64,000 bases of DNA from Candidatus Uhrbacteria bacterium (GCA_026395055.1 JAPLZK010000003.1:173987-237986); one strand, 5' to 3'; counted from the first letter of the stretch, positions 2,087 through 51,388 are shown. Numbers and translations are program-made. The notes: generated by a model from the sequence alone, not told the origin.

Positions 2087-2880
2087 AAACCAGTTAATTG
2101 ACGATAAATTTCCGGCAAAACATGTTTACACGCACGCCAGAGTCTGTGCTGCCTAAGTGTACCGTAAACGACCATGATCGGAAAGACGAAACTCGCGTTA
2201 AGAATACGACCAATGCGCTTTGGTTCGATGAAGACGCGCCAAACCCATTCGAGTCCCATTTGTGACATGATTCGAGGTGCGCGCGGCTTCATTCCAGCAA
2301 TCATCTCGAAGGCACCACCGATTCCGACTGCGATGCGAATAGATGGAACGTTCGGTAAGACTTCGTGTATAAATTTTTCCTGTTTCTTTTGTCCGAGGGC
2401 GACAAGCATGATGTCTGGTGAAATTTCGAGAAGGGTTTCGAGGATGCGGTCAGAAATTGGAAACGTCACTTGCCCAGGATTGAAAATGGAAATCTTGATA
2501 CCTGGATACTGTTTTTCAAAGACCTCTTTTGTCTTTTCGGCAGAACCTGGATCTCCACCAACGAGCAATACATGTTTATGATTTTCATTCGAGAGATATG
2601 CAACTCGCTCAACAAGATCAACTCCTGTATGCCGATAAGACAGAGTTTCATTTGTGAGTGCAGCTATTGCGAATCGGAGTCCCACACCATCCGGCAAAGA
2701 AAGATCGCTTGACTGCAATATTTTTTGAAACTCCTCGTCTTTACGTGCAAGCAAAAGAAACTCCGGATTTGGAGTTGTGATGAATTTTTGAACAGTTCCA
2801 TTCATCCATTCTGTCAGTTGAGCGTCGAGATTCTCGTTCGATAGATCATCGATCGGAACATCGAAAAGAAGATGTCTCAT
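2083..2880 (-). CDS. WecB/TagA/CpsF-family glycosyltransferase (N-acetylmannosaminyltransferase-like)
   Basis: The TagA/WecG family layout is present (VPIDDL..., LLGG, EWVWR). The start is moved to MRHLLFDVPIDD at 2880 by analogy with TagA N-termini. The 4-nt overlap with gltX is ATGA-type. Confidence 0.75.
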   Translation of the reverse strand: MRHLLFDVPIDDLSNENLDAQLTEWMNGTVQKFITTPNPEFLLLARKDEEFQKILQSSDLSLPDGVGLRFAIAALTNETLSYRHTGVDLVERVAYLSNENHKHVLLVGGDPGSAEKTKEVFEKQYPGIKISIFNPGQVTFPISDRILETLLEISPDIMLVALGQKKQEKFIHEVLPNVPSIRIAVGIGGAFEMIAGMKPRAPRIMSQMGLEWVWRVFIEPKRIGRILNASFVFPIMVVYGTLRQHRLWRACKHVLPEIYRQLTGL

Positions 2881-2926
2881 GTGCACATAGTCTATCAAAA
2901 TGGCACATTTATTCAAGTTTTTTTGT

Positions 2927-2955
2927 TTGACAAATCTTTTTTAGCACTCTATCAT
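2927..2955 (+). promoter_or_regulatory. Sigma70-type promoter of clpB: -35 TTGACA (2927..2932), 17-nt spacer, -10 TATCAT (2950..2955)
   Basis: Hexamers and spacing were read directly from the sequence. Confidence 0.6.
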
Positions 2956-2967
2956 TATGAGTGCTAA
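2941..2967 (+). promoter_or_regulatory. CIRCE element (HrcA operator) TTAGCACTC-N9-GAGTGCTAA overlapping the clpB -10 and transcription start
   Basis: Perfect match to the canonical CIRCE inverted repeat at 2941..2949 and 2959..2967 with a 9-nt spacer. Confidence 0.85.
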
Positions 2968-3004
2968 TGTTTCAGGTTTCCAAAACAAAAACGAAAATAT
3001 TCTT

Positions 3005-5650
3005 ATGATGCCAAACAATTTCACGTTAAAATCTCAAGAAGCAATCCAGCGCGCACATAACATCGCTCTTGAAAATGGACAACCCGCGCTTGAACCCATT
3101 CACCTTCTTGTTTCTCTGCTCACCCAACAAGACGGAATCATTCCAACGATTGTAGACAAAATTACCACGCAAGAATCTAATCTTCGTCATGAACTTGATC
3201 ACATCCTCGAAACGTTACCGAAATCCCCTGCCCCACAAGCGGGTGGAGTTGGACAAATGTATTTGAGTCAACAGATGGCAGAAACATTATCAATGGCACA
3301 TAAGAAAGCAAAAGAGTTTAAGGATGATTTTATTTCCACAGAACATTTACTTCTTGCCCTCTTAACAAACAAGCCCGTTGAAAACCTCCTTGCCGGATAT
3401 GAGATCACAGAAGAATCCGTCATGCGCGCGCTCAAGGACATCCGTGGTGCACAACGCGTAGATTCTGCAGAGCCAGAAGCACGTTATCAGACTCTCGAAA
3501 AATACGGCTCTGATCTCACGGAAGCCGCCCGTCTTGGTGAGCTTGATCCGGTGATTGGTCGCGATACGGAGATTCGACGACTTATGCAGGTGCTCTCTCG
3601 ACGAACCAAGAACAACCCGGTCCTGATCGGAGAAGCTGGAGTTGGAAAGACCGCAATTGTTGAGGGTCTCGCACAACGCATCGCATCAGGCGATGTCCCA
3701 GAATTACTGAAGGACAAATCTATTTTCATGTTAGATGTCGGCGCACTCGTTGCGGGAACAAAGTTTCGTGGCGAGTTTGAGGAACGACTCAAGGCTGTTA
3801 TCAAAGAAATCGAAAGTTCAGGCGGAAAAATCATTCTGTTTATTGATGAATTGCACACACTCGTTGGAACAGGAACAACAGAAGGTGGAACAATGGATGC
3901 ATCGAATATGTTGAAGCCGGCACTTGCTCGAGGGAAACTGCGTGCCATTGGTGCAACAACATTAAAAGAGTATCAGCGCTATATCGAAAAAGACCCAGCG
4001 CTCGAACGCCGATTCCAACCGATCATTGTTGAAGAACCTTCTGTCGAGGACACAATCGCGATCCTTCGAGGAATCAAAGAAAAGTACGAAGCGCACCATG
4101 GTGTGCGTATTTCAGATCCTTCCCTCATCTCCGCTGCCGAGTTGTCCGATCGCTATATCACAGATCGAAACTTGCCCGATAAGGCCGTCGATCTTATGGA
4201 CGAAGCGGGTTCTGCGCTTCGTATGCAGATTGATTCGATGCCAGAAGAACTGGATGTTCTCAAGCGAGATCTTATGCGTCTTGAAATTGAAGAAAAGGCG
4301 TTGCAAAAAGAAGATGACAAAGAATCAAAGTCTCGTCTCAAGGAAATTGAGAAGCAGATTGCCGATCTTCGTGAACAAACAGAAGCATTCGAAGGGAGAT
4401 GGAGAAATGAAAAGGAAAAGATTACGCTTATTCGTGAGATTAAGTCTTCGATCGATCGTCTCAAGCTGCAAGCAGAGCAAGAGGAACGCAAAGGGAATCT
4501 CGAGAAAGTGGCGGAGATTCGTTATGCAAACTTGCCTGTCGAAGAAAAGAAGTTGAAAGCGGCTGAAGAAGCGCTTCGAAAAATTCAAAAAGAGCGCGGT
4601 CTTTTGAAAGAAGTCATTACCGAAGAAGATATCGCCACAGTCGTTTCAAGATGGACAAACATTCCCGTCTCGAAAATGCTCGAATCAGAAATGAAAAAAC
4701 TGACGCGCATGGAGGACGACCTTGCAAAGCGTGTTGTTGGACAAGCAGAAGCAATCACAGCCGTCTCAAACGCACTACGTCGATCACGTGCAGGCATTGG
4801 CGAAGAACATCGTCCAATCGGTTCGTTTATTTTCCTTGGACCAACAGGAGTTGGAAAAACGGAACTTGCTCGAGCACTCGCCGAGTTTATGTTCAATGAT
4901 GAGTCTGCCATGATTCGTCTCGACATGAGCGAATACATGGAGAAACATTCGACCTCCAAGATCATTGGTTCCCCACCAGGATACGTCGGTTACGAAGAAG
5001 GCGGACAGCTCACTGAACTTGTGCGACGTAAACCGTATTCCGTTTTGCTTTTCGACGAAATTGAGAAAGCACATCCAGATACATTCAACTTGCTTCTCCA
5101 AATTTTAGACGAAGGTCATTTAACGGATGCGAAAGGTCGCAAAGTAAACTTCAAGAATACGATTATCATCATGACATCCAACATTGGATCAGATCTGATT
5201 CTCAATGCTGGGTCCTCGATGAGCTCAATGGGCTTTCATGAAGAATCGGAGATTGAAGTTGGATCGGACAAAGAAATTCGCGAGACGATCATGGGATTGC
5301 TCAAGGATCATTTCCGTCCTGAGTTCTTAAACCGTGTAGACGAAACGATTGTCTTTCACGCGCTTCGACCAGAAGACATGGAGGCGATCGTTCAAATCCA
5401 ACTTGATCGTGTTGCGCTTCGACTCAAAACACAAAGACACATTGAACTTGTTGTATCAGATACTGCTCGAGCTTTCATTGCGAAACTCGGATACGACCCG
5501 TCATATGGCGCTCGACCGGTGAAACGCGTCATCCAAACGCAGATTCTTGATCCGCTCGCTCTCAAGATTGTTTCCGGCGATATCAAAGAAGGAAAACAAG
5601 TTGTGGTCGGAGTAAAACAAGATCAAATCGTGATCTTGACCAAGAAATAA
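3005..5650 (+). CDS. clpB: ATP-dependent chaperone ClpB (Hsp100 disaggregase)
   Basis: Two AAA+ modules ([18 protein letters not shown] and [15 protein letters not shown] Walker A motifs) with a coiled-coil middle domain. The start was chosen at [15 protein letters not shown] because the upstream ATG at 2957 lies inside the CIRCE operator and upstream of the predicted transcription start. Confidence 0.9.
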
Positions 5651-17631: not shown

Positions 17632-18351
17632 TTATGAAGCATCTGATTCAGATGTCACTTCCGTTTGTGTGTTGAGAAGGATTGAGAAATAATCGATAAG
17701 AGTTTTTGCAGATTGCTCTACAGCAACTTCTGGAGTAACGGTTCCGTCTGTTTCAATGTTCATGATGAGCTTATCATAGTTTGTGATATCGCCCACACGT
17801 GTATTGACCACATGGTAACCAACGTTTCTAACGGGAGAAAACAGGGCGTCAATGGCAATGGTGCCAAGATCATGTGTTTCTCCTGCGCGTTCCTCTGTTG
17901 TGGAATAACCACGCCCTTTACGAACGGTGAGTTCCATCTCAAAGGTTGCTTTTGCTTCTGTAAGATGAGCGATCACGAGGTCTGGGTTCATGATTTCAAC
18001 ATCTGCATTTGGAGCAATGTCTCCCGCTGTGATGGTTTTTAACCCGCTCACACTCAACTTGAGTGTGACAGGTTCATCAGAAAAAACTTTGAGACGAAGG
18101 GTCTTGAGGTTTAAAATGATCTCAAGAGCGTCCTCTTTCACGTTTTCAATTGCTTGAAATTCGTGCGTGACACCTTTCATCTTAACGGCTGTAACCGCAG
18201 CTCCCGGCAAAGATGAGAGCAACACGCGACGCAATGCGTTTCCGAGTGTTGTTCCATAGCCGTAAAAGCATGGTTCTACAACCAAAACGCCTTCGTTTGG
18301 TCGTTCGCCCTTTTCGAACGAAATTTTTGATGGAAGAAGAATGTTCTCCAT
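17632..18351 (-). CDS. rpoA: DNA-directed RNA polymerase subunit alpha, N-terminal domain only (no alpha-CTD)
   Basis: Strong alpha-NTD match (GTTLGNALRRVLLSSLPGAAVT). At 239 aa it ends where the alpha-NTD ends in E. coli, and only 14 nt separate it from rplQ. Confidence 0.9.
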   Translation of the reverse strand: MENILLPSKISFEKGERPNEGVLVVEPCFYGYGTTLGNALRRVLLSSLPGAAVTAVKMKGVTHEFQAIENVKEDALEIILNLKTLRLKVFSDEPVTLKLSVSGLKTITAGDIAPNADVEIMNPDLVIAHLTEAKATFEMELTVRKGRGYSTTEERAGETHDLGTIAIDALFSPVRNVGYHVVNTRVGDITNYDKLIMNIETDGTVTPEVAVEQSAKTLIDYFSILLNTQTEVTSESDAS

Positions 18352-20361: not shown

Positions 20362-22245
20362 TTACGTGAGAACAGCCTTGATTCTTCTGAGTCCAGATCC
20401 GATCGATTCTTCCTTCTGAATCTCAAATTTTCCTAGTTCGGCGGTGTTTGATACATGAGGCCCTCCACAAACCTCTTTTGAGAAGGCGTCTCCCATAGCT
20501 TCATCACCAACGAAATAGACTTTTACCTTATCTCCAACTTCTGCATACTTATCCGTAAATAGTCCGATTGCCCCTCGCGCTTTTGCTTCTTCAAGCGTCA
20601 GCATTTCGAAGTGAACCGGTAACTTCTTTGAAATTGCCTCATTAACCAGCCCTTCAACCTGTTTAATCTGATCATCCGTGAGTCTTTCTGGATACGGAAA
20701 GTCGAATCGGAGGCGTTCTGGGGTGATGTTGCTTCCCTTTTGGACGACCATATCACCAAGAACCTGTCTAAGCGACTGATGAAGTAAGTGAGTTGCTGTG
20801 TGGTATTTAACGCTCATTTCTGACGTATCTGCAAGACCACCCTTGAACTTCTGCTCTGAACCAGCTCGAGAAAGTGCTTGATGCTTTTCTTTTTCGACTT
20901 TAAACGTTTCCATATCGACCGTAAACCCATTCTCTGTCGCGAGCTCTTGTGTCAGCTCAACAGGAAACCCATAAGATTGAACGAGATCAAATGCATCCAT
21001 TCCTGATATCTGTTTATTACTTTCAACAGTCAGGAGCTCAACGAATTTCTTCATTCCCTGTTTCAACGTTTGTTGAAATTTCTTTTCCTCCTTCGCGAGC
21101 TCGGCAAGAACCCTATCTCGAGAAGATGCGAGATTCGGATATGCTTCCGAATAAGCTTCGATGAATGTTGCACCGATCTGAGCACAAACATCTTCTGTGA
21201 TATTCAGCCAATGTGCGAAACGAACGGAACGACGAATTAATCTACGTACAAAATATCCCTGATCTTTATTCGATGGATTAACACCATCACCAATAAGAAA
21301 TGTAGCAGCTCGAAGGTGATCCAAGATCACACGGAATTCATCCGTGTGTGTTTCGTAGGTTCTTCCACTGAGTTCTTCTAGCTTTTGAATAGCGGATTGA
21401 AAAACATCTACACGAAAAATATCTGGATCCCCATTCACCGCCGCGCACACACGTTCAAGTCCACCTCCAAAATCCACGTTTCTTTGTTTAAGCTCCTCAA
21501 AACCTGTTTCTGTCTTCACGTATTGCATGAACACATTGTTTCCAATTTCAACGAAACGCCCACAGTCACAGTTCACATGACATGGTTCGTTTTTCCAATT
21601 TGAAATTTCATGCAAGTTTCGTTCCGCACCAAAATCCCAAAACATTTCTGTGTCTGGACCACCGGGTTCTCCAACAGGCATGTTTGATGGCACGCCAGTT
21701 CTACTCCACCAGTTTTTTTTTTCTGGTTAATAAAAAATACGTTCACCAGATTTCATTCCGTCTTGTTCCACATTTTCACCAATCGCCGCATCAATCCCCT
21801 TTGACGCAAATAATTTTTGCCACAATGCTGCAGACTCTTCATCTCTGGGAATATTCAAATCCGTATTTCCTCGAAATACAGTCACATATAAATTCTTTGG
21901 ATCAAGTCCAAGATTCGTCGTCAAAAATTCAAACATCCATGTGATTTGCTCATTTTTGAAATAATCTCCAAGCGACCAGTTGCCGAGCATTTCAAAAAAC
22001 GTTGTGTGACGATTATCTCCCACTTCATCAATGTCTTGTGAACGAAAACATTTTTGAGAATCTGCAATACGAACACCACGAGGATGTGCCTCGCCGAGTA
22101 AATAAGAAACCATTGGTTGCATTCCGGATCCGGTAAAAAGGGTCGTTGGATCATTTTCAGGGATCAACAATGCGGATGGAAGAATGGCATGACCATGATC
22201 AGCAAAAAACTTCAGGTACTGTTCGCGAATTTCAGAAATCGTCAT
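20362..22245 (-). CDS. alaS: Alanine--tRNA ligase lacking the C-Ala domain; the reading frame is interrupted by one in-frame TAA (21727..21729) next to an A10 homopolymer
   Basis: The two ORF-track pieces (21727..22284 and 20362..21693) are in the same frame, separated by TAA plus 11 sense codons (PEKKNWWSRTG) that match the conserved AlaRS NFW-MGDTGPCGPC region. The catalytic and editing domains are present. The start was moved to MTISEIREQYLKFF at 22245. Confidence 0.75.
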
Positions 22246-22299
22246 AATGCGTGGATTGTACAAAGGAAAGAGATGAAAAGTCAAAAAGGAAAAAACCTT

Positions 22300-39016: not shown

Positions 39017-39940
39017 TTATTTTTTCTTTCCTTTTATCCCCTCCCATGTCACAAGCGCAGGGCTTGCAAGGAAGATAGATGAATACGTTCCCGCAATGAT
39101 TCCTACGATAAGGGCAAGGGAGAACGGACGTGTTGTGTCTCCTCCAAAGAAGAAGATGGCGGTTAAACACAGCAAGGTTGTCATGGATGTGCTAATGGAA
39201 CGACGAATGGTCTGGCGAATACTGACATCAACCGTTGTTTCAAAAGATGGACTGATGTGTTTGAGCAAGTTTTCACGCGTACGATCAAACACCACAATCG
39301 TGTCTGTAATGGAATAACCAAGAACAGTCAGAATGGCCGCTACGAATGCGGTATCAACTTCCCAATTGAGAAACTTTCCAAGAATCGCGAAGACGCCGAG
39401 CGGCACGACAACGTCATGGAATGCGGTGATAATGGTGAGAACACCGTATTTCCATGAAGCAACAGGATGTGTCACTTTACGAAAGGTAAAGGCGACGTAA
39501 GAACCGATGAGCACAAGAATCAAAATGATTCCAAACGCCGCAGACTTTTGTAATTCCTTTCCAATGACTGGACCGATGGAATCAAATTTTTCTTCCGCTG
39601 TTTTGTCTCCGTATGTTTTCTTAAGATCAGACAACAATGCTTGGTGCTGTTCTTCATTTAAACTCTCAAGACGAATGAGCGCTCCGTTCGTGCTTGTTGA
39701 TTGAACAATGACATCATTATGACCAAGTTTTGCAACGTGGTCGCGCAATTCTGTTGTGACAACCGGTTTTTCAAAAGAAACTTCAAGCAAACTTCCTCCC
39801 GTAAAATCGATTCCGAGTTTTAAGCCGAACATTCCGATGGAAACCACACACACAAGCACAATCGCTCCTGAAATGGCGTACCAAAGTTTTCTGTATTTAA
39901 CAATATGGATTTGCATAGGATTATGACTTGTTATCTTCAT
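39017..39940 (-). CDS. secF: Protein translocase subunit SecF
   Basis: SecF signature (GIDFTGGSLLEV) and a 6-TM C-terminal half. Confidence 0.9.
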   Translation of the reverse strand: MKITSHNPMQIHIVKYRKLWYAISGAIVLVCVVSIGMFGLKLGIDFTGGSLLEVSFEKPVVTTELRDHVAKLGHNDVIVQSTSTNGALIRLESLNEEQHQALLSDLKKTYGDKTAEEKFDSIGPVIGKELQKSAAFGIILILVLIGSYVAFTFRKVTHPVASWKYGVLTIITAFHDVVVPLGVFAILGKFLNWEVDTAFVAAILTVLGYSITDTIVVFDRTRENLLKHISPSFETTVDVSIRQTIRRSISTSMTTLLCLTAIFFFGGDTTRPFSLALIVGIIAGTYSSIFLASPALVTWEGIKGKKK

Positions 39941-41999
39941 TTTTCTTTACACCAAAGAGAATTGGTTTGTGTGTCCACTTCCAACCAAAGACGGTATGGA
40001 GATATTGGCGCGCCACATAAATTGCCGTAAACAAACTGAGAACGACTCCAATTCCAAGGGTGAGGGCAAATCCACGAATAAAGCTTGAACTGAACCAGTA
40101 CAACACAACAGAAGAGATGAGTGTGGTGAAGTGACCGTCACGAATTGCAGCCCATGCACGTCGTTCTGCTTCATCTGCGGAGGAGATTAATCCTCTACCT
40201 GATGCGTATTCCTCTTTCAAACGTTCAATAATGAGAACGTTGGCATCAACCGCAATACCAAGAGACAAAACAAGTCCAGCAATACCTGCAAGCGTAATGG
40301 TTACTCCAAAGAGTCTGTACGCAAGCATATTCAATGAAGAGAACAGGAGCAACGCAACAATTGCAATCACACCTGGCAAACGATACATGCCGATCATGTA
40401 AATGGTGACGAGCAAGAATCCGATAAGCGCCGCCATGATACTTTTTTGCAACGAGACAGATCCAAGTGTTGGACCAACAGTTTGTTGTGAAAGCAAGGTG
40501 ACAGGAACAGGAAGCGCACCCGCATTTAAGCGTTGTGCCAAAATCTTTGCTTCATCAAGGGTGAAGTTTCCGGTAATAACCGCACGACCACCATAAATAG
40601 CTGCCTGAACAACAGGAGTTGAAATAGGAGAACCATCAAGAAAAATCGCGATTGGTTTTCCAACGTTTGCGGCAGTGAGTGTTCCAAACAGATCCCCTCC
40701 GTCTTTATCAAACGTGATTCCAACATAAGGATTTCCTGTCTTTTGATCAAATTCTACAACCGCGCTTTGCAATTGCTTTCCAGAAAGTTGTGTGTTTTTC
40801 CAAGGTGACGCTGGAGGCAAAACATCTGCCATGGTGGAAAGCTTCATCGCGATACGTTGAATCTTAAACGCTGGGATCACTTTTTGATCTTGCTTATAAA
40901 TCAAATGGTATCCGAAGTCTGTTTCGACAATATCTGAGATTTTTCCAACAGGAAGCGTTTCTGCAGCCGCTCCAAATGCTGGGACGTATTTATCTGCAGT
41001 TGCGTATCCAAGATCTCCACCATTTGTTGCAGCGCTAGGATCTGTAGAGTTTTTCTTTGCGAGGTCTGCAAAGTTTTGTGGGGTTGCTTCCTTCTTTAAA
41101 TTTGAAATTTGAATATTCGCGTCTATTGCGGACGTATCCTTTGAACATCCCTGCTTGCCCTTTGAACAAATCAAGATGTGCGAAAGATGCATGTTATTTG
41201 CGGTTGTATTTTCAAGCACTTTGAAAATTTCAATAGAACCACCAGATTCAACGGTTTTCCAAAATACAGATCCTGCTTTTGGTTTGTTTTGTGTAAGTGC
41301 TTTTGCGATTTCAGGATATTGGGCAGAATCAGAAGTAATTTTTGGCATTATACCTTTTGTGTCTGCCTTTGCAGCTTCTGTACTTACCTCCGCAACAAGC
41401 TTATCAAAATCTTCTCCTTTTTGTGCACGAAGCAAAACGGCTTGTGCGGCAGCACGGTCTGCCTTTTGCAACTCTGCAAGTTTTGTTTGATCTGCCGCTG
41501 TTGGTTTTGTATCTGTTTTTGATCCTTGTTCTTTAAATTCCAAAACAGGTGTTTCTCCAATTTGTTTAATGGCATCAGAAACATTCAACACACCCGCAAG
41601 TTCCACAATCACACGAGACACTCCGCCTGTTGATGTGGTTTGTACGAGCGGTTCAGAAACACCAAACGCGTTTACACGACGTTCAATCACATCACGAACA
41701 CCAGAAAGAGCGTTTGCGCGATCTTTTTCTGGGATCTCTTTCATGTCCGCAGAATAAACAAGGTGTGTTCCACCCTGCAAATCAAGTCCAAGACGATATG
41801 CATGTTCGTTAAGCACTGGCAAAGAAACGTGCGCTTTCGCTTTTACAAATCCGGCCGTTACATTCCACGCGTGTGGAAAATCATAAAATCCCGCAACAAG
41901 TGTTACGATCAAAAAAACAACGGTTGCAACTTTTGCTTTCCATGGTTTATGAACTTTCTGTGCGTTCTGAGACGTTCGTTTGGTTTTCCAAGTTTGCAT
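39921..41999 (-). CDS. secD: Protein translocase subunit SecD carrying a tandem parvulin-type (PpiC) PPIase insertion in its periplasmic P1 domain
   Basis: SecD N-terminus, P1 segments and 6-TM C-terminus. Inserted at about aa 158-372 are two parvulin-like units, the second with clear PpiC motifs (HLSHILI...NGGDLGYA...VPAF...FGYHLIYK). Confidence 0.85.
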   Translation of the reverse strand: MQTWKTKRTSQNAQKVHKPWKAKVATVVFLIVTLVAGFYDFPHAWNVTAGFVKAKAHVSLPVLNEHAYRLGLDLQGGTHLVYSADMKEIPEKDRANALSGVRDVIERRVNAFGVSEPLVQTTSTGGVSRVIVELAGVLNVSDAIKQIGETPVLEFKEQGSKTDTKPTAADQTKLAELQKADRAAAQAVLLRAQKGEDFDKLVAEVSTEAAKADTKGIMPKITSDSAQYPEIAKALTQNKPKAGSVFWKTVESGGSIEIFKVLENTTANNMHLSHILICSKGKQGCSKDTSAIDANIQISNLKKEATPQNFADLAKKNSTDPSAATNGGDLGYATADKYVPAFGAAAETLPVGKISDIVETDFGYHLIYKQDQKVIPAFKIQRIAMKLSTMADVLPPASPWKNTQLSGKQLQSAVVEFDQKTGNPYVGITFDKDGGDLFGTLTAANVGKPIAIFLDGSPISTPVVQAAIYGGRAVITGNFTLDEAKILAQRLNAGALPVPVTLLSQQTVGPTLGSVSLQKSIMAALIGFLLVTIYMIGMYRLPGVIAIVALLLFSSLNMLAYRLFGVTITLAGIAGLVLSLGIAVDANVLIIERLKEEYASGRGLISSADEAERRAWAAIRDGHFTTLISSVVLYWFSSSFIRGFALTLGIGVVLSLFTAIYVARQYLHTVFGWKWTHKPILFGVKKNEDNKS

Positions 42000-48121: not shown

Positions 48122-49726
48122 TTACTTACAACCCGGTGTCCATTTATGTGTGCAGGTGTTCCCAATACAGGCATCAACCGTGCACCCCTGACCATCGTCG
48201 TTGCATACACCCTCTTGCGGGTTTGCATATGGGAGGAAAACACATCCTTTCTTTGCTTCATCACACGCGTCCGACGTGCACCCGTTTCCATCACTACACA
48301 CGTATGCGTCATGAACGGAACACATCGAATCTTTGCACTTGTCGTTGATGGTACACAGGAGTCCATCGTCGCATTTCAGGGCGTTTGGAACGTGCGTACA
48401 GAGCATGCTTGCACAGACATCTGTTGTGCAAACGTTTCCGTCGTCCAAACATTTTGTGCCATCCGGTTCTTGCGGGTGCATGCATTTGCCGTCCGCGCAT
48501 TTGTCTTGCGTACAGGCATTACCATCATCCGTGCATTTGCCGTCAGATGACGCAGCGTGTTTGCAACCCGTGAATGGATCACACGAATCCGTTGTGCACG
48601 GATCGTTGTCGTTGCAATTCAACGTACTTCCGCCGATGCATGTCCCCGCAGCGCACTGTGAAAGTGCGGTGCAAATATTTGCGTCATCACAGGCAGAACT
48701 GGTGAGAGGTGTATGTTTGCATCCACCATCAGTGTTGCAGACATCTGTCGTACAGCTATTGCCGTCGTCGCAGAGATCTTCATCGGTCTTGCCGTCACAA
48801 TCGTCATCCTTTCCATTACAGGTTTCGGGTGACGCATCCGGCGCATTGCAGATGGCTTTGCCGTCGCTGCAGGCAATGAACTTTCCAAGGCATGTGCCGA
48901 ATTCGTTCTTCTTGTCACATTGAACACCAAATGTATTCTCGTCGATGTTGTCCGTCTTTGCATCGCAGTTGTCGTCTTTCCCGTTACAGATTTCCTGTTC
49001 AGGGACTTGACCGACACATCCAGACAATCCATTCACCGTACACGTACGAGTACCCGCACAAGACCCAAAAGGATTTGTGTTGGCACAGGCCGTAGAAAAA
49101 CCTTTCTGGATGGCAAAGGGCGAACACGCACATGTTGCGTTTCCAGAAGGGAGACACTGTGAGCTTCCAGCCCCGCTCTTTGGATCCGTGACGAATTTGC
49201 ACGTATATCCTTTGGGGCAATCATCGCTCACTGGGTCACAGGTCACTCCACAAAAACTCCCCGCGTCACCATGACTGATGCACGCATTGTTCGAGTCTTT
49301 GGCAAAGTTGCATTGATCGTTTGTCGTGCACGGATTACACAGGTTCAACAAGCGAGAAACACAGACGAACTGAACATCTGTTCCACCACCTACAACCTGT
49401 CCGCATGCGTATCCACTTTGACACGACTGTACACAGATCATCGAGCACTTTTTCCCGTTCTCTGTTTGTAAACAAAGACCGGAATCACAATCATCTGAAT
49501 GTTCACACGCGTAGCCAAACTGACCCGGCGTGATCATGACATCACTTTGCGTTGAGACAAGTACGTCCGTGAACACATCTGCCGTGAGTACCGCATCGAG
49601 TTTTGCATCTCCCGCAACGTCTGCGTTCGATGTGTCCCCATTGGACGGCGCTAAGATCTGATCAGTACCACATCCAATCGATGTGCAGATGAGGCAAAAA
49701 AGACAGATTTTTTGAGAGAGCGTCAT
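48122..49726 (-). CDS. Cysteine-rich tandem-repeat lipoprotein (about 16 copies of the C-D-D-G-N-x-C-T-x-D-x-C motif)
   Basis: Signal/lipobox-like N-terminus (MTLSQKICLFCLICTSIGCG) with an AGGAGG ribosome-binding site 8 nt upstream of the ATG at 49726. Repeated DGNxCTxDxC units such as DGNACTQDKCADGKC and DGNVCTTDVCASMLC. Confidence 0.7.
   Translation of the reverse strand: MTLSQKICLFCLICTSIGCGTDQILAPSNGDTSNADVAGDAKLDAVLTADVFTDVLVSTQSDVMITPGQFGYACEHSDDCDSGLCLQTENGKKCSMICVQSCQSGYACGQVVGGGTDVQFVCVSRLLNLCNPCTTNDQCNFAKDSNNACISHGDAGSFCGVTCDPVSDDCPKGYTCKFVTDPKSGAGSSQCLPSGNATCACSPFAIQKGFSTACANTNPFGSCAGTRTCTVNGLSGCVGQVPEQEICNGKDDNCDAKTDNIDENTFGVQCDKKNEFGTCLGKFIACSDGKAICNAPDASPETCNGKDDDCDGKTDEDLCDDGNSCTTDVCNTDGGCKHTPLTSSACDDANICTALSQCAAGTCIGGSTLNCNDNDPCTTDSCDPFTGCKHAASSDGKCTDDGNACTQDKCADGKCMHPQEPDGTKCLDDGNVCTTDVCASMLCTHVPNALKCDDGLLCTINDKCKDSMCSVHDAYVCSDGNGCTSDACDEAKKGCVFLPYANPQEGVCNDDGQGCTVDACIGNTCTHKWTPGCK
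48150..49250 (-). repeat. Coding tandem repeat array (units of about 78-84 nt, Cys-rich motif) inside the lipoprotein gene
   Basis: Periodic recurrence of the DGNxCTxDxC peptide motif. Confidence 0.55.
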
Positions 49727-49843
49727 CAAGGAAACCTCCTGGCATGGGCAAGCAACATGCCCAGAGATCTTTTCAGAAAAAAATGAAATTGTCAATAGTT
49801 TAGATAAAAAAATCCTCCTTTCAGGTGAAAGAAGGAAGAGGTG

Positions 49844-51388
49844 TCAGGGGACGCAATTACCAATCGGGACGAAAACACATTTGCCTGTGGTTGGATTGCA
49901 CGAATCGGAGGTGCACTTGTTTTGGTCGTCGCACACAAGCGGAGGCTTGCTAATGCAGACACTGTTGTTGCACTTGTCACCGGTTGTGCACGCATCGCCA
50001 TCGTCGCACGGATCGTTGTTGACGTTTGTGAAGATGCATCCCGTTTTTGGATTACAGATGTCATCCGTACACGAGTTACCGTCATCACACTTGTAAACCT
50101 TACCTACACATGTTGTTGCGGAGCACTCACTCGCAAGCGTACATGCGTCGCCGTCGTCGCAGGAGTAACCCTGGTTGGCCGTGTGGTTACACACGCCAAT
50201 GGCTGGGTCACAACTATCGTTCGTACAGACATTATTGTCATTACAAGTCTGCGACAGTCCTTTGCAATTGTTGCCGTAACAGATGTCGCCGATTGTACAG
50301 GCATTGTTGTCATTGCACGGATCCTTGTCGTGAACCGTGAACTGACAGCCTGTTGCCGCAATACACGAATCTTCCGTGCAATCATTTCCGTCCGCGCACT
50401 GCTTCTGCTTGCCAATGCAAACACCAAGCGAGCACTGATCGTCCGTGGTGCACAGACTATTGTCACTACAAGAAAACACGTTTGGAATAGGCGTATGAAC
50501 GCACACACCCGTCCCGGAATCACACGAGTCTGCCGTGCAGACATTATTGTCGTTGCAATTCTTCTGGTTTCCTGAGACACACTGACTCTTTTGACACGTG
50601 TCATTCTGCGTACAAAAGTCCCCGTCGTTGCAATTCGCCCCGTCTGCTTGGGGTGTCGAATAACATCCAGCAACCTTGTCACACAGATCCGCCGTACACG
50701 CGTTCCCGTCATTGCACGTAATTGGCGTTCCGGCACAAGCACCCTTTGCGCACTGATCCGGTGCCGTACAGGCATTGCCGTCATCACACGGATCGTTCGT
50801 GAGCTTTTCATGAACGCACTGGTTGATTTCGTTACAGTAGTCCTTTGTGCATTGATCTGCATCATCACAGTCCACGGCCTTGCCGAGACAGTTGCCGTTC
50901 AGACAATGGTCGTTGTTCGTGCAGACGCTTCCGTCGTCGCATGGGATGTCGATGTTCACGTGCGAGCATCCTGCGATCTTGTCGCAAGGATCAAGCGTGC
51001 AAGGTTTGCCATCTGAACAGTCGACTCCCTTTGGACCAACACATGTTCCGATTGCAGAACAAACATCGCCCGTCGTACAGACATCGCCATCAGAACACGC
51101 GGTACCTTGTGGCGAAGGCTGGTGATGACACTCACCCGTTCCCGGGTCGCACCAATCTTGCTGACAAGGAGTCTTCGTGTCGCACTGTTCGTGCGTCACA
51201 CAGACAAATACATCTGCCGCAATTTCCGGCCCAGTGTCTTGTGGGACATCCGGCGGAAGATCGGGCGAACCCGAGTCCATCGAAACATCACCAGCAACTT
51301 CAGGAGGTGCAGAAACAATGGTCGAATCCGAGCACGCCGATACATAAACACAACCAACGATCAAAAGGGCTTTCGTCAAACGATTCAC
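49844..51388 (-). CDS. Cysteine-rich tandem-repeat lipoprotein, paralog of the adjacent gene (about 16 repeats)
   Basis: Lipoprotein signal (LLIVGCVY). Repeats include DGDVCTTGDVC, DGKPCTLDPCD, DGNACTAPDQC, DGNACTADLCD, DNNVCTADSCD, DGNDCTEDSC and DGNSCTDDICN. A GGAGG site lies upstream. Confidence 0.7.
   Translation of the reverse strand: MNRLTKALLIVGCVYVSACSDSTIVSAPPEVAGDVSMDSGSPDLPPDVPQDTGPEIAADVFVCVTHEQCDTKTPCQQDWCDPGTGECHHQPSPQGTACSDGDVCTTGDVCSAIGTCVGPKGVDCSDGKPCTLDPCDKIAGCSHVNIDIPCDDGSVCTNNDHCLNGNCLGKAVDCDDADQCTKDYCNEINQCVHEKLTNDPCDDGNACTAPDQCAKGACAGTPITCNDGNACTADLCDKVAGCYSTPQADGANCNDGDFCTQNDTCQKSQCVSGNQKNCNDNNVCTADSCDSGTGVCVHTPIPNVFSCSDNSLCTTDDQCSLGVCIGKQKQCADGNDCTEDSCIAATGCQFTVHDKDPCNDNNACTIGDICYGNNCKGLSQTCNDNNVCTNDSCDPAIGVCNHTANQGYSCDDGDACTLASECSATTCVGKVYKCDDGNSCTDDICNPKTGCIFTNVNNDPCDDGDACTTGDKCNNSVCISKPPLVCDDQNKCTSDSCNPTTGKCVFVPIGNCVP
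49900..51150 (-). repeat. Coding tandem repeat array (about 26-28-aa Cys-rich units)
   Basis: Periodic DGNxCTxDxC motif. Confidence 0.55.

Follow-up and report, generated by a model that had tools for sequence, protein, structure and literature searches.

A candidate HrcA operator embedded in the clpB promoter of a Candidatus Uhrbacteria bacterium, and a shortened HrcA in its CPR relatives

The clpB gene of this Candidatus Uhrbacteria bacterium very probably carries an HrcA operator that is embedded in its promoter. The site lies in a stretch of 64,000 nucleotides (GCA_026395055.1, JAPLZK010000003.1:173987-237986), the whole of which was analysed and is called the window here. As shown in Table 1, a TTGACA −35 hexamer and a TATCAT −10 hexamer precede clpB, and the spacer between them reads AATCTTTTTTAGCACTC. 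The final 9 nt of this spacer double as the left arm of a CIRCE element, which is composed of TTAGCACTC (2941-2949), the loop TATCATTAT (2950-2958) and GAGTGCTAA (2959-2967); the −10 hexamer makes up bases 1-6 of the loop. The inverted repeat TTAGCACTC-N9-GAGTGCTAA was matched at 18 of 18 specified bases. A perfect CIRCE overlapping TTGACA-17-TATCAT in front of clpB had been described in the first-pass annotation of this DNA, and direct reading of the sequence confirmed all of these elements. It was the single CIRCE match in the 64-kb window at up to 3 mismatches, while shuffled sequences gave 0.01 expected matches.

Table 1. Features of the clpB promoter region in the window
Feature	Position	Strand	Basis or remark
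−35 hexamer TTGACA, clpB promoter	2927..2932	+	sequence, promoter scan, relatives
17-nt promoter spacer	2933..2949	+	sequence, promoter scan
CIRCE (candidate HrcA operator), perfect inverted repeat	2941..2967	.	pattern search, column conservation
−10 hexamer TATCAT in CIRCE loop	2950..2955	+	sequence, promoter scan, relatives
Predicted transcription start, within right CIRCE arm	2962..2964	+	inferred from sigma-70 promoter geometry
In-frame upstream ATG inside CIRCE	2957..2959	+	probably not the ClpB start
clpB, 881 aa, ATP-dependent disaggregase	3005..5650	+	Pfam, TIGR03346, NCBI product
Intergenic region between divergent wecG-gltX and clpB	2881..3004	.	ORFs, domains

In the promoter scan, the clpB promoter agreed with the sigma-70-type consensus at 11 of 12 positions. 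Three sites of this quality were present in the whole window on both strands, compared with a mean of 1.1 in first-order Markov randomisations, and the promoter match taken alone is only mildly unusual. What makes it convincing is its position in a 124-nt intergenic region, together with the overlap with the CIRCE and the conservation in relatives. Transcription would start about 7 nt after the −10 hexamer, so the leader would measure about 43 nt and the transcript would not include the full CIRCE hairpin. Since the left arm would be missing from the predicted transcript, an RNA-level role for the CIRCE is unlikely. The distance from the end of the CIRCE to the clpB start codon is 38 nt, and no Shine-Dalgarno-like sequence was found in the window's clpB leader before 3005. 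A CtsR box, a HAIR element and a sigma-32 promoter were absent from 2801-3060 even at 4 mismatches, and no Rfam family matched in 2700-3200. A terminator reading of the palindrome was rejected, as the palindrome has no T-run and it is the 5′ end of the divergent upstream gene that faces it.

The identity of the downstream gene is clear. Its 881-aa product was 100% identical to NCBI MCX6714871.1 (P0001), [quoted passage not shown], which is encoded on a contig of 367,614 bp. Pfam domains Clp_N, two AAA modules, AAA_lid_9 and ClpB_D2-small were detected, and the protein scored 1251.3 bits against the TIGR03346 equivalog (cut-off 1232.1), covering profile positions 1-852 of 853. On the minus strand, a WecG/TagA-family glycosyltransferase gene (ATG at 2880) and then gltX lie upstream and share the intergenic region with clpB.

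An ATG in the loop and right arm of the CIRCE is in frame with clpB (ORF 2957..5650, 897 aa). The first-pass annotation stated that the operator rules out this ATG as the ClpB start. In all nine clpB loci compared below, a homologous start M-[MLI]-P-N-N-F-T corresponds to window position 3005, and the NCBI annotation also starts ClpB there. Of the relatives, only the closest, L081, shares the ATG at 2957; the CIRCE of L210 also contains in-frame ATG and GTG codons. An in-frame stop intervenes upstream of the clpB start in L083, L085 and L209, and an upstream start is completely lacking in L083 and L209. In addition, the ATG lies upstream of the predicted transcription start. These comparisons support 3005 rather than 2957 as the probable start of ClpB, so the exclusion of the upstream ATG stood, and the wording "rules out" was slightly too strong for a transcription start that is itself a prediction. 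Across the loci, 14 to 102 nt separate the −10 hexamer from the clpB start codon. In L209 and L210 (both at 2973-3003), the clpB ATG is 1 nt past the right arm of the CIRCE, so the predicted leader is about 7 nt or shorter and the mRNAs would be nearly leaderless.

The relatives' clpB loci were collected by ClpB protein identity and not by a DNA motif. Their ClpB proteins were 71-95% identical to that of the window, namely 95% in L081/L082, 84% in L083, 80% in L084, 75% in L085, 74% in L211, 73% in L209, 71% in L210 and 73% in L001. L001 came from a metagenome scan, in which the matches listed were mostly distant ClpBs of 51-58% identity and L001 was the only one useful for this clade; the other eight loci were assembly-derived. 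The gltX-wecG<>clpB synteny was kept in all eight assembly-derived loci, and the sequence of L001 ends 184 nt upstream of clpB. Directly upstream of clpB, a CIRCE with at most 2 mismatches was present in 9 of 9 distinct loci, the window included. All nine also had a −35 hexamer (TTGACA, TTGACT or TTTACA) 7-8 nt ahead of the CIRCE and a loop beginning with TAnnnT (TATCAT, TAAAAT, TAAACT, TAGACT, TATACT, TATAAT or TACACT). Column conservation over the nine loci was 0.94 for the left arm, 1.00 for the right arm and 0.80 for the −10 hexamer, compared with 0.44-0.46 for the flanks. This pattern reads as a clear footprint of both an operator and a promoter, and the CIRCE appears to be kept at orthologous promoters under purifying selection. 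A CIRCE also precedes clpB in the unrelated metagenomic lineages L003, L012, L021, L067, L077 and L079. The leader between CIRCE and clpB in L085 (9912-10000) contains an insertion of about 70 nt with a long, almost perfect palindrome, ggggacacatacattgtaaacc…ggtttacaatgtatgtgtcccc, which is absent from the other loci.

A minus-strand promoter-like site, TTGGAA-18-CATAAT (2954-2983), overlaps the CIRCE loop and is directed at wecG-gltX; it is weak and may be a mere by-product of the AT-rich loop. If it were functional, the operator would be bidirectional and would also control the divergent wecG-gltX genes through a −10 hexamer (2959-2954) located in the CIRCE loop, with its −35 hexamer at 2983-2978. 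Such a role would suit the distance of 61 nt between the CIRCE and the wecG start and the conserved wecG<>clpB arrangement. However, the site is a 9/12 match, level with chance frequency, and an AT-rich loop looks −10-like on either strand. Its −35 hexamer lies where the flank is not conserved (0.44), L083 has no equivalent of it, and heat-shock control would not be expected for the genes of a glycosyltransferase and a glutamyl-tRNA synthetase. We therefore regard control in both directions as unlikely; it is possible but poorly supported, and it would add to an HrcA operator within the clpB promoter, not replace it.

The arrangement was then considered beyond this clade. Species-representative genomes were scanned for TTGACA-N7-9-TTAGCACTC-N9-GAGTGCTAA, which gave at least 120 sites in at least 119 loci; the sample is selected by the pattern itself, so it tells what such sites precede and not what share of CPR clpB genes have such a site. 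At least 59 of the 119 loci listed were CPR-labelled. The labels among the matches listed were Peregrinibacteria/Peribacteria (20), Uhrbacteria (14), unclassified Patescibacteria (10), Parcubacteria (5), Magasanikbacteria (4), Gracilibacteria (4) and Moranbacteria (2). CPR-type genes were also found in many loci with a TPA label of "uncultured Gammaproteobacteria", which is probably a mislabelling. Seven TPA_asm MAGs with this label (L095, L098, L110, L141, L151, L166 and L180) have a CPR-type short hrcA-grpE-dnaK cluster.

Among the matches listed, the first downstream gene was of the chaperone type at 94 of the 113 assessable sites. It encoded ClpB at 34 sites, HrcA at 27 (usually as hrcA-grpE-dnaK, sometimes with dnaJ), GroES/GroEL at 15, DnaK at 13, DnaJ at 4 and GrpE at 1, while the downstream ORF was unclassified at 19 sites and the site lay at a block edge at 7. 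Several of the 19 unclassified ORFs are probably spurious ORFs in GC-rich contigs from outside the CPR. Thus clpB is the most frequent target among the matches listed in this pattern-selected sample. The loop of the 120 sites listed began with TATAAT in 38 cases, TATACT in 15, TAAAAT in 8 and TACACT in 7. One ClpB, P0060, was 73% identical to that of the window. At one of the 19 unclassified sites, in a Burkholderiales MAG (L123:5658-5697), TTGACA-CIRCE precedes a gene for a 301-aa RpoH-like sigma factor, which was identified by reading the sequence.

The module was found at both hrcA and clpB in Uhrbacteria JACRJW01 (hrcA in L087, clpB in L155) and in two assemblies named RIFOXYB12_FULL_58_10 (L130, L159). 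Moreover, contig JBFOMO010000178.1 (GCA_040960315.1) carries the syntenic clpB (L085), whose CIRCE has 1 mismatch, and hrcA-grpE-dnaK (L205) at a distance of about 73 kb. The latter cluster is preceded by TTGACA-N7 and a perfect CIRCE with TATAAT in the loop. These observations suggest that HrcA/CIRCE is a conserved stress circuit in the CPR radiation.

The same data bear on where transcription of clpB begins. If it started further upstream, the CIRCE would lie in the 5′ UTR, which is the classical arrangement in Bacillus, as a roadblock operator and/or an mRNA-stability hairpin, and TTGACA and TATCAT would be incidental. Three clpB loci of other lineages (L003, L012 and L077) do have the CIRCE downstream of a promoter-like −35/−10 pair, and promoter-like matches of at least 9/12 are no commoner than chance in this region. 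Against this, only 46 nt separate the wecG start from the −35 hexamer, and TTGACA/TATCAT is the only promoter-like site on the plus strand of the intergenic region. The −35 hexamer and the loop TAnnnT keep a fixed spacing in 9 of 9 loci, most of the 120 scan sites listed have a −10-like hexamer in the loop, and the start codons of L209 and L210 leave no space for a classical leader. A start further upstream is thus very unlikely, and the evidence favours a promoter that contains the operator.

The search for a repressor gene in this genome covered the window and a short extension. No hrcA, groES, groEL, dnaK or grpE was detected by Pfam in 50 of the 69 window ORFs of at least 150 aa. A phmmer search with the B. 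subtilis HrcA gave no hrcA among all six-frame window ORFs of at least 80 aa; the query was sensitive enough, since it later detected the CPR HrcAs. No second CIRCE was found in the 64-kb window. Beyond the last gene of the window, dnaB, the sequence was extended to the right by about 3 kb, using identical dnaB copies on Logan contigs of 3.7-5.9 kb, and this extension (ybaB, recR, coaBC) contained no hrcA. Among the matches listed, no HrcA homologue had an accession near MCX6714871. In relatives, hrcA was found behind a perfect CIRCE, and in relatives and other CPR genomes further copies were found at dnaK and groE operons; hrcA and such copies before groES or dnaK were what the first-pass annotation had linked to its reading. 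Given the perfectly preserved operator and the hrcA genes of relatives, we infer that this genome encodes HrcA as well.

Several other features of the window were recorded. RpoA (17632-18351, minus strand) is 239 aa long and has the N-terminal and insert domains with no alpha-CTD match, and it is followed by rplM, not rplQ; an alpha subunit without CTD would bear on promoter and activator function in this organism. In alaS (20362-22284, minus strand), an in-frame TAA (21727-21729) interrupts the conserved stretch …ERIFY*PEKKNWWS… 5 nt before an A10 run and leaves two ORFs of 185 and 443 aa in the same frame, which could reflect a sequencing or assembly error, a pseudogene, a split gene or readthrough. 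SecD (39921-41999, minus strand, 692 aa) contains an inserted PPIC-type peptidyl-prolyl isomerase (rotamase) domain at residues ~257-372. Two adjoining proteins of 557 and 514 aa encoded at 48122-51388 (minus strand) have Dicty_CTDC (Dictyostelium-type Cys-rich) repeats, and the GC content of this stretch is raised to 0.50, compared with about 0.44 elsewhere.

The HrcA proteins of the CPR relatives are short. Among the matches listed, CPR HrcA was 230-241 aa long (about 232 aa), compared with 348-353 aa for non-CPR HrcA from the same scan; Mollicute HrcA is also of full length, about 340 aa. The genes concerned are L205:10001-10699, L207:10001-10702 and those in L087, L101, L130, L142 and L152, with products among P0121-P0287. 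The proteins keep the N-terminal winged-helix motifs EPVGS…SPATVRN.M..LE..G…PHTSAGR.PTE and the C-terminal G.LG..GP.RM.Y, and about 110 residues from the interior of the canonical protein are missing. Against Pfam PF01628 they scored 49-60 bits (cut-off 22.2) over profile positions ~84-213 of 215. Against TIGR00331 (338 positions) they scored 162-185 bits in two stretches, with E-values of 1e-47 to 1e-54, which is below the cut-off of 197.2 and explains the frequent NCBI label "hypothetical protein". A search by gene name could thus wrongly report hrcA as absent. By these profile matches, the short protein is clearly homologous to HrcA and is a shortened variant of it. In the homologue search, 7,999 of the 8,000 scored candidates had E-values of at most 1e-10, and 118 of the best 120 were 230-248 aa long, the other two being 264 and 286 aa. 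Thousands of such short homologues occur in Uhrbacteria and other Patescibacteria.

An AlphaFold model of one relative's HrcA (P0170) had a pLDDT of 86 and a pTM of 0.83. Its best structural match was T. maritima HrcA (1STZ), with an E-value of 1.6e-14 and a TM-score of 0.83 normalised to the query and 0.61 normalised to 1STZ. The N-terminal winged-helix region aligns by sequence to residues 15-100. The model fits a winged-helix plus a GAF-like domain without the inserted domain. By size and position, the roughly 110 mid-protein residues that the CPR protein lacks relative to 1STZ presumably correspond to the dimerising inserted domain of the latter. With these residues absent, the DNA binding, dimerisation and GroEL dependence of the short HrcA are assumptions.

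Another explanation is that the CIRCE is a relic, hrcA having been lost from this genome and clpB being expressed constitutively from a strong promoter. The lack of hrcA in the 64-kb window agrees with this, CPR genomes are reduced, and CIRCE copies are decaying in Spiroplasma (PMC5138195). Decay does not fit an 18/18 site whose arms are 94-100% conserved in nine loci next to flanks of about 45%, and each relative with enough sequence has a short hrcA behind its own CIRCE, in line with the thousands of short homologues. We consider a relic highly improbable. A chance palindrome without function is effectively refuted, as 0.01 such matches are expected per window at 3 mismatches and this one sits right in front of a chaperone gene and is kept in 9 of 9 loci.

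The preferred reading is therefore repression by HrcA through promoter occlusion, which is supported by the conserved CIRCE and promoter, the association with chaperone genes and the short HrcA in relatives. The HrcA control of clpB proposed in the first-pass annotation gains weight from two comparative results: the same promoter-embedded CIRCE occurs at hrcA-grpE-dnaK, groES-groEL, dnaJ and clpB in many CPR genomes, and relatives with a syntenic clpB carry an HrcA-family gene behind a perfect CIRCE. Binding of HrcA at the site and its sensing of the signal are predicted from these sequences. An HrcA-family repressor, presumably a dimer, would place one winged-helix domain on each CIRCE arm, and the bound protein would block RNA polymerase at the −10 hexamer and the predicted transcription start, which would keep clpB off. 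In the established model, HrcA depends on GroEL/ES for its activity and loses it when GroEL/ES is titrated away (Mogk et al., 1997, cited in PMC7737663 and PMC7053576). Accumulation of unfolded proteins would thereby cause HrcA to lose activity and free the strong promoter. ClpB would then be produced along with DnaK/GrpE/DnaJ and GroES/EL.

Few bacterial heat-shock controls are as widespread as HrcA/CIRCE. The heat-shock control of clpB can also rest on sigma-32 (E. coli), HspR/HAIR (Streptomyces and others) or CtsR (Firmicutes); the logic is the same, with clpB co-induced with the DnaK system, but the regulators and motifs differ. The class I regulon of B. subtilis has the same operator sequence as the window and an autoregulated hrcA-grpE-dnaK operon like that of the CPR relatives. 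To our knowledge, B. subtilis has no clpB, and its Clp ATPase genes are under CtsR. Its CIRCE lies between the transcription start and the ribosome-binding site and is hence transcribed, whereas the CIRCE of the window overlaps the −10 hexamer and the spacer, and the left arm would stay outside the transcript. The proposed signal, GroEL titration, is the same (Mogk et al., 1997, as cited in PMC7737663 and PMC7053576).

The Mollicutes M. pneumoniae, M. gallisepticum and S. melliferum are likewise genome-reduced and have HrcA as one of few conserved regulators. Their regulon includes clpB together with dnaK, dnaJ and groEL/ES, and the CIRCE consensus is identical to that of the window (PMC7737663, PMC5138195). 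ClpB belongs to the HrcA regulon of M. pneumoniae (PMC7737663), and clpB of S. melliferum carries CIRCE copies (PMC5138195). Lon is a further target in Mollicutes, whereas lon was not seen among the CPR sites listed. In the window, the −10 hexamer sits inside the CIRCE loop at a fixed spacing to a consensus −35.

Repressors that occlude promoters are textbook knowledge, and Mollicutes provide a documented case of clpB under HrcA. For a specialist, the site itself would be unsurprising. In the searchable library, no literature was found that links HrcA with CPR, Patescibacteria, Saccharibacteria, Parcubacteria or Uhrbacteria. As far as we know, almost nothing has been established about transcriptional regulation in CPR bacteria. 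What emerges across the CPR is a stereotyped operator-in-promoter module that often precedes clpB, together with a shortened HrcA; this picture may be undescribed so far.

For the window, the analysis provides a supported start codon and a promoter for clpB and a specific, testable regulatory model. It describes a known type of stress switch in a little-studied lineage where the arrangement seems common, and the comparative data suggest that CPR genomes encode a shortened repressor, which often goes unnamed in annotation pipelines. In a wider reading, the core proteostasis regulon of CPR bacteria (hrcA-grpE-dnaK, groES-groEL, dnaJ and clpB) would be controlled by a minimal HrcA of about 232 aa, made of a winged-helix and a GAF-like domain without the ~110-aa domain that dimerises T. 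maritima HrcA. It would act through a stereotyped module of TTGACA, 7-9 nt, left arm, −10 hexamer as loop and right arm. We judge this wider reading about equally likely to hold or to fail. If it is true, the minimal HrcA must dimerise or sense stress in a way unlike the canonical protein, standard annotation would systematically miss it as a "hypothetical protein", and the clpB site of the window would be one instance of the operator-in-promoter module.
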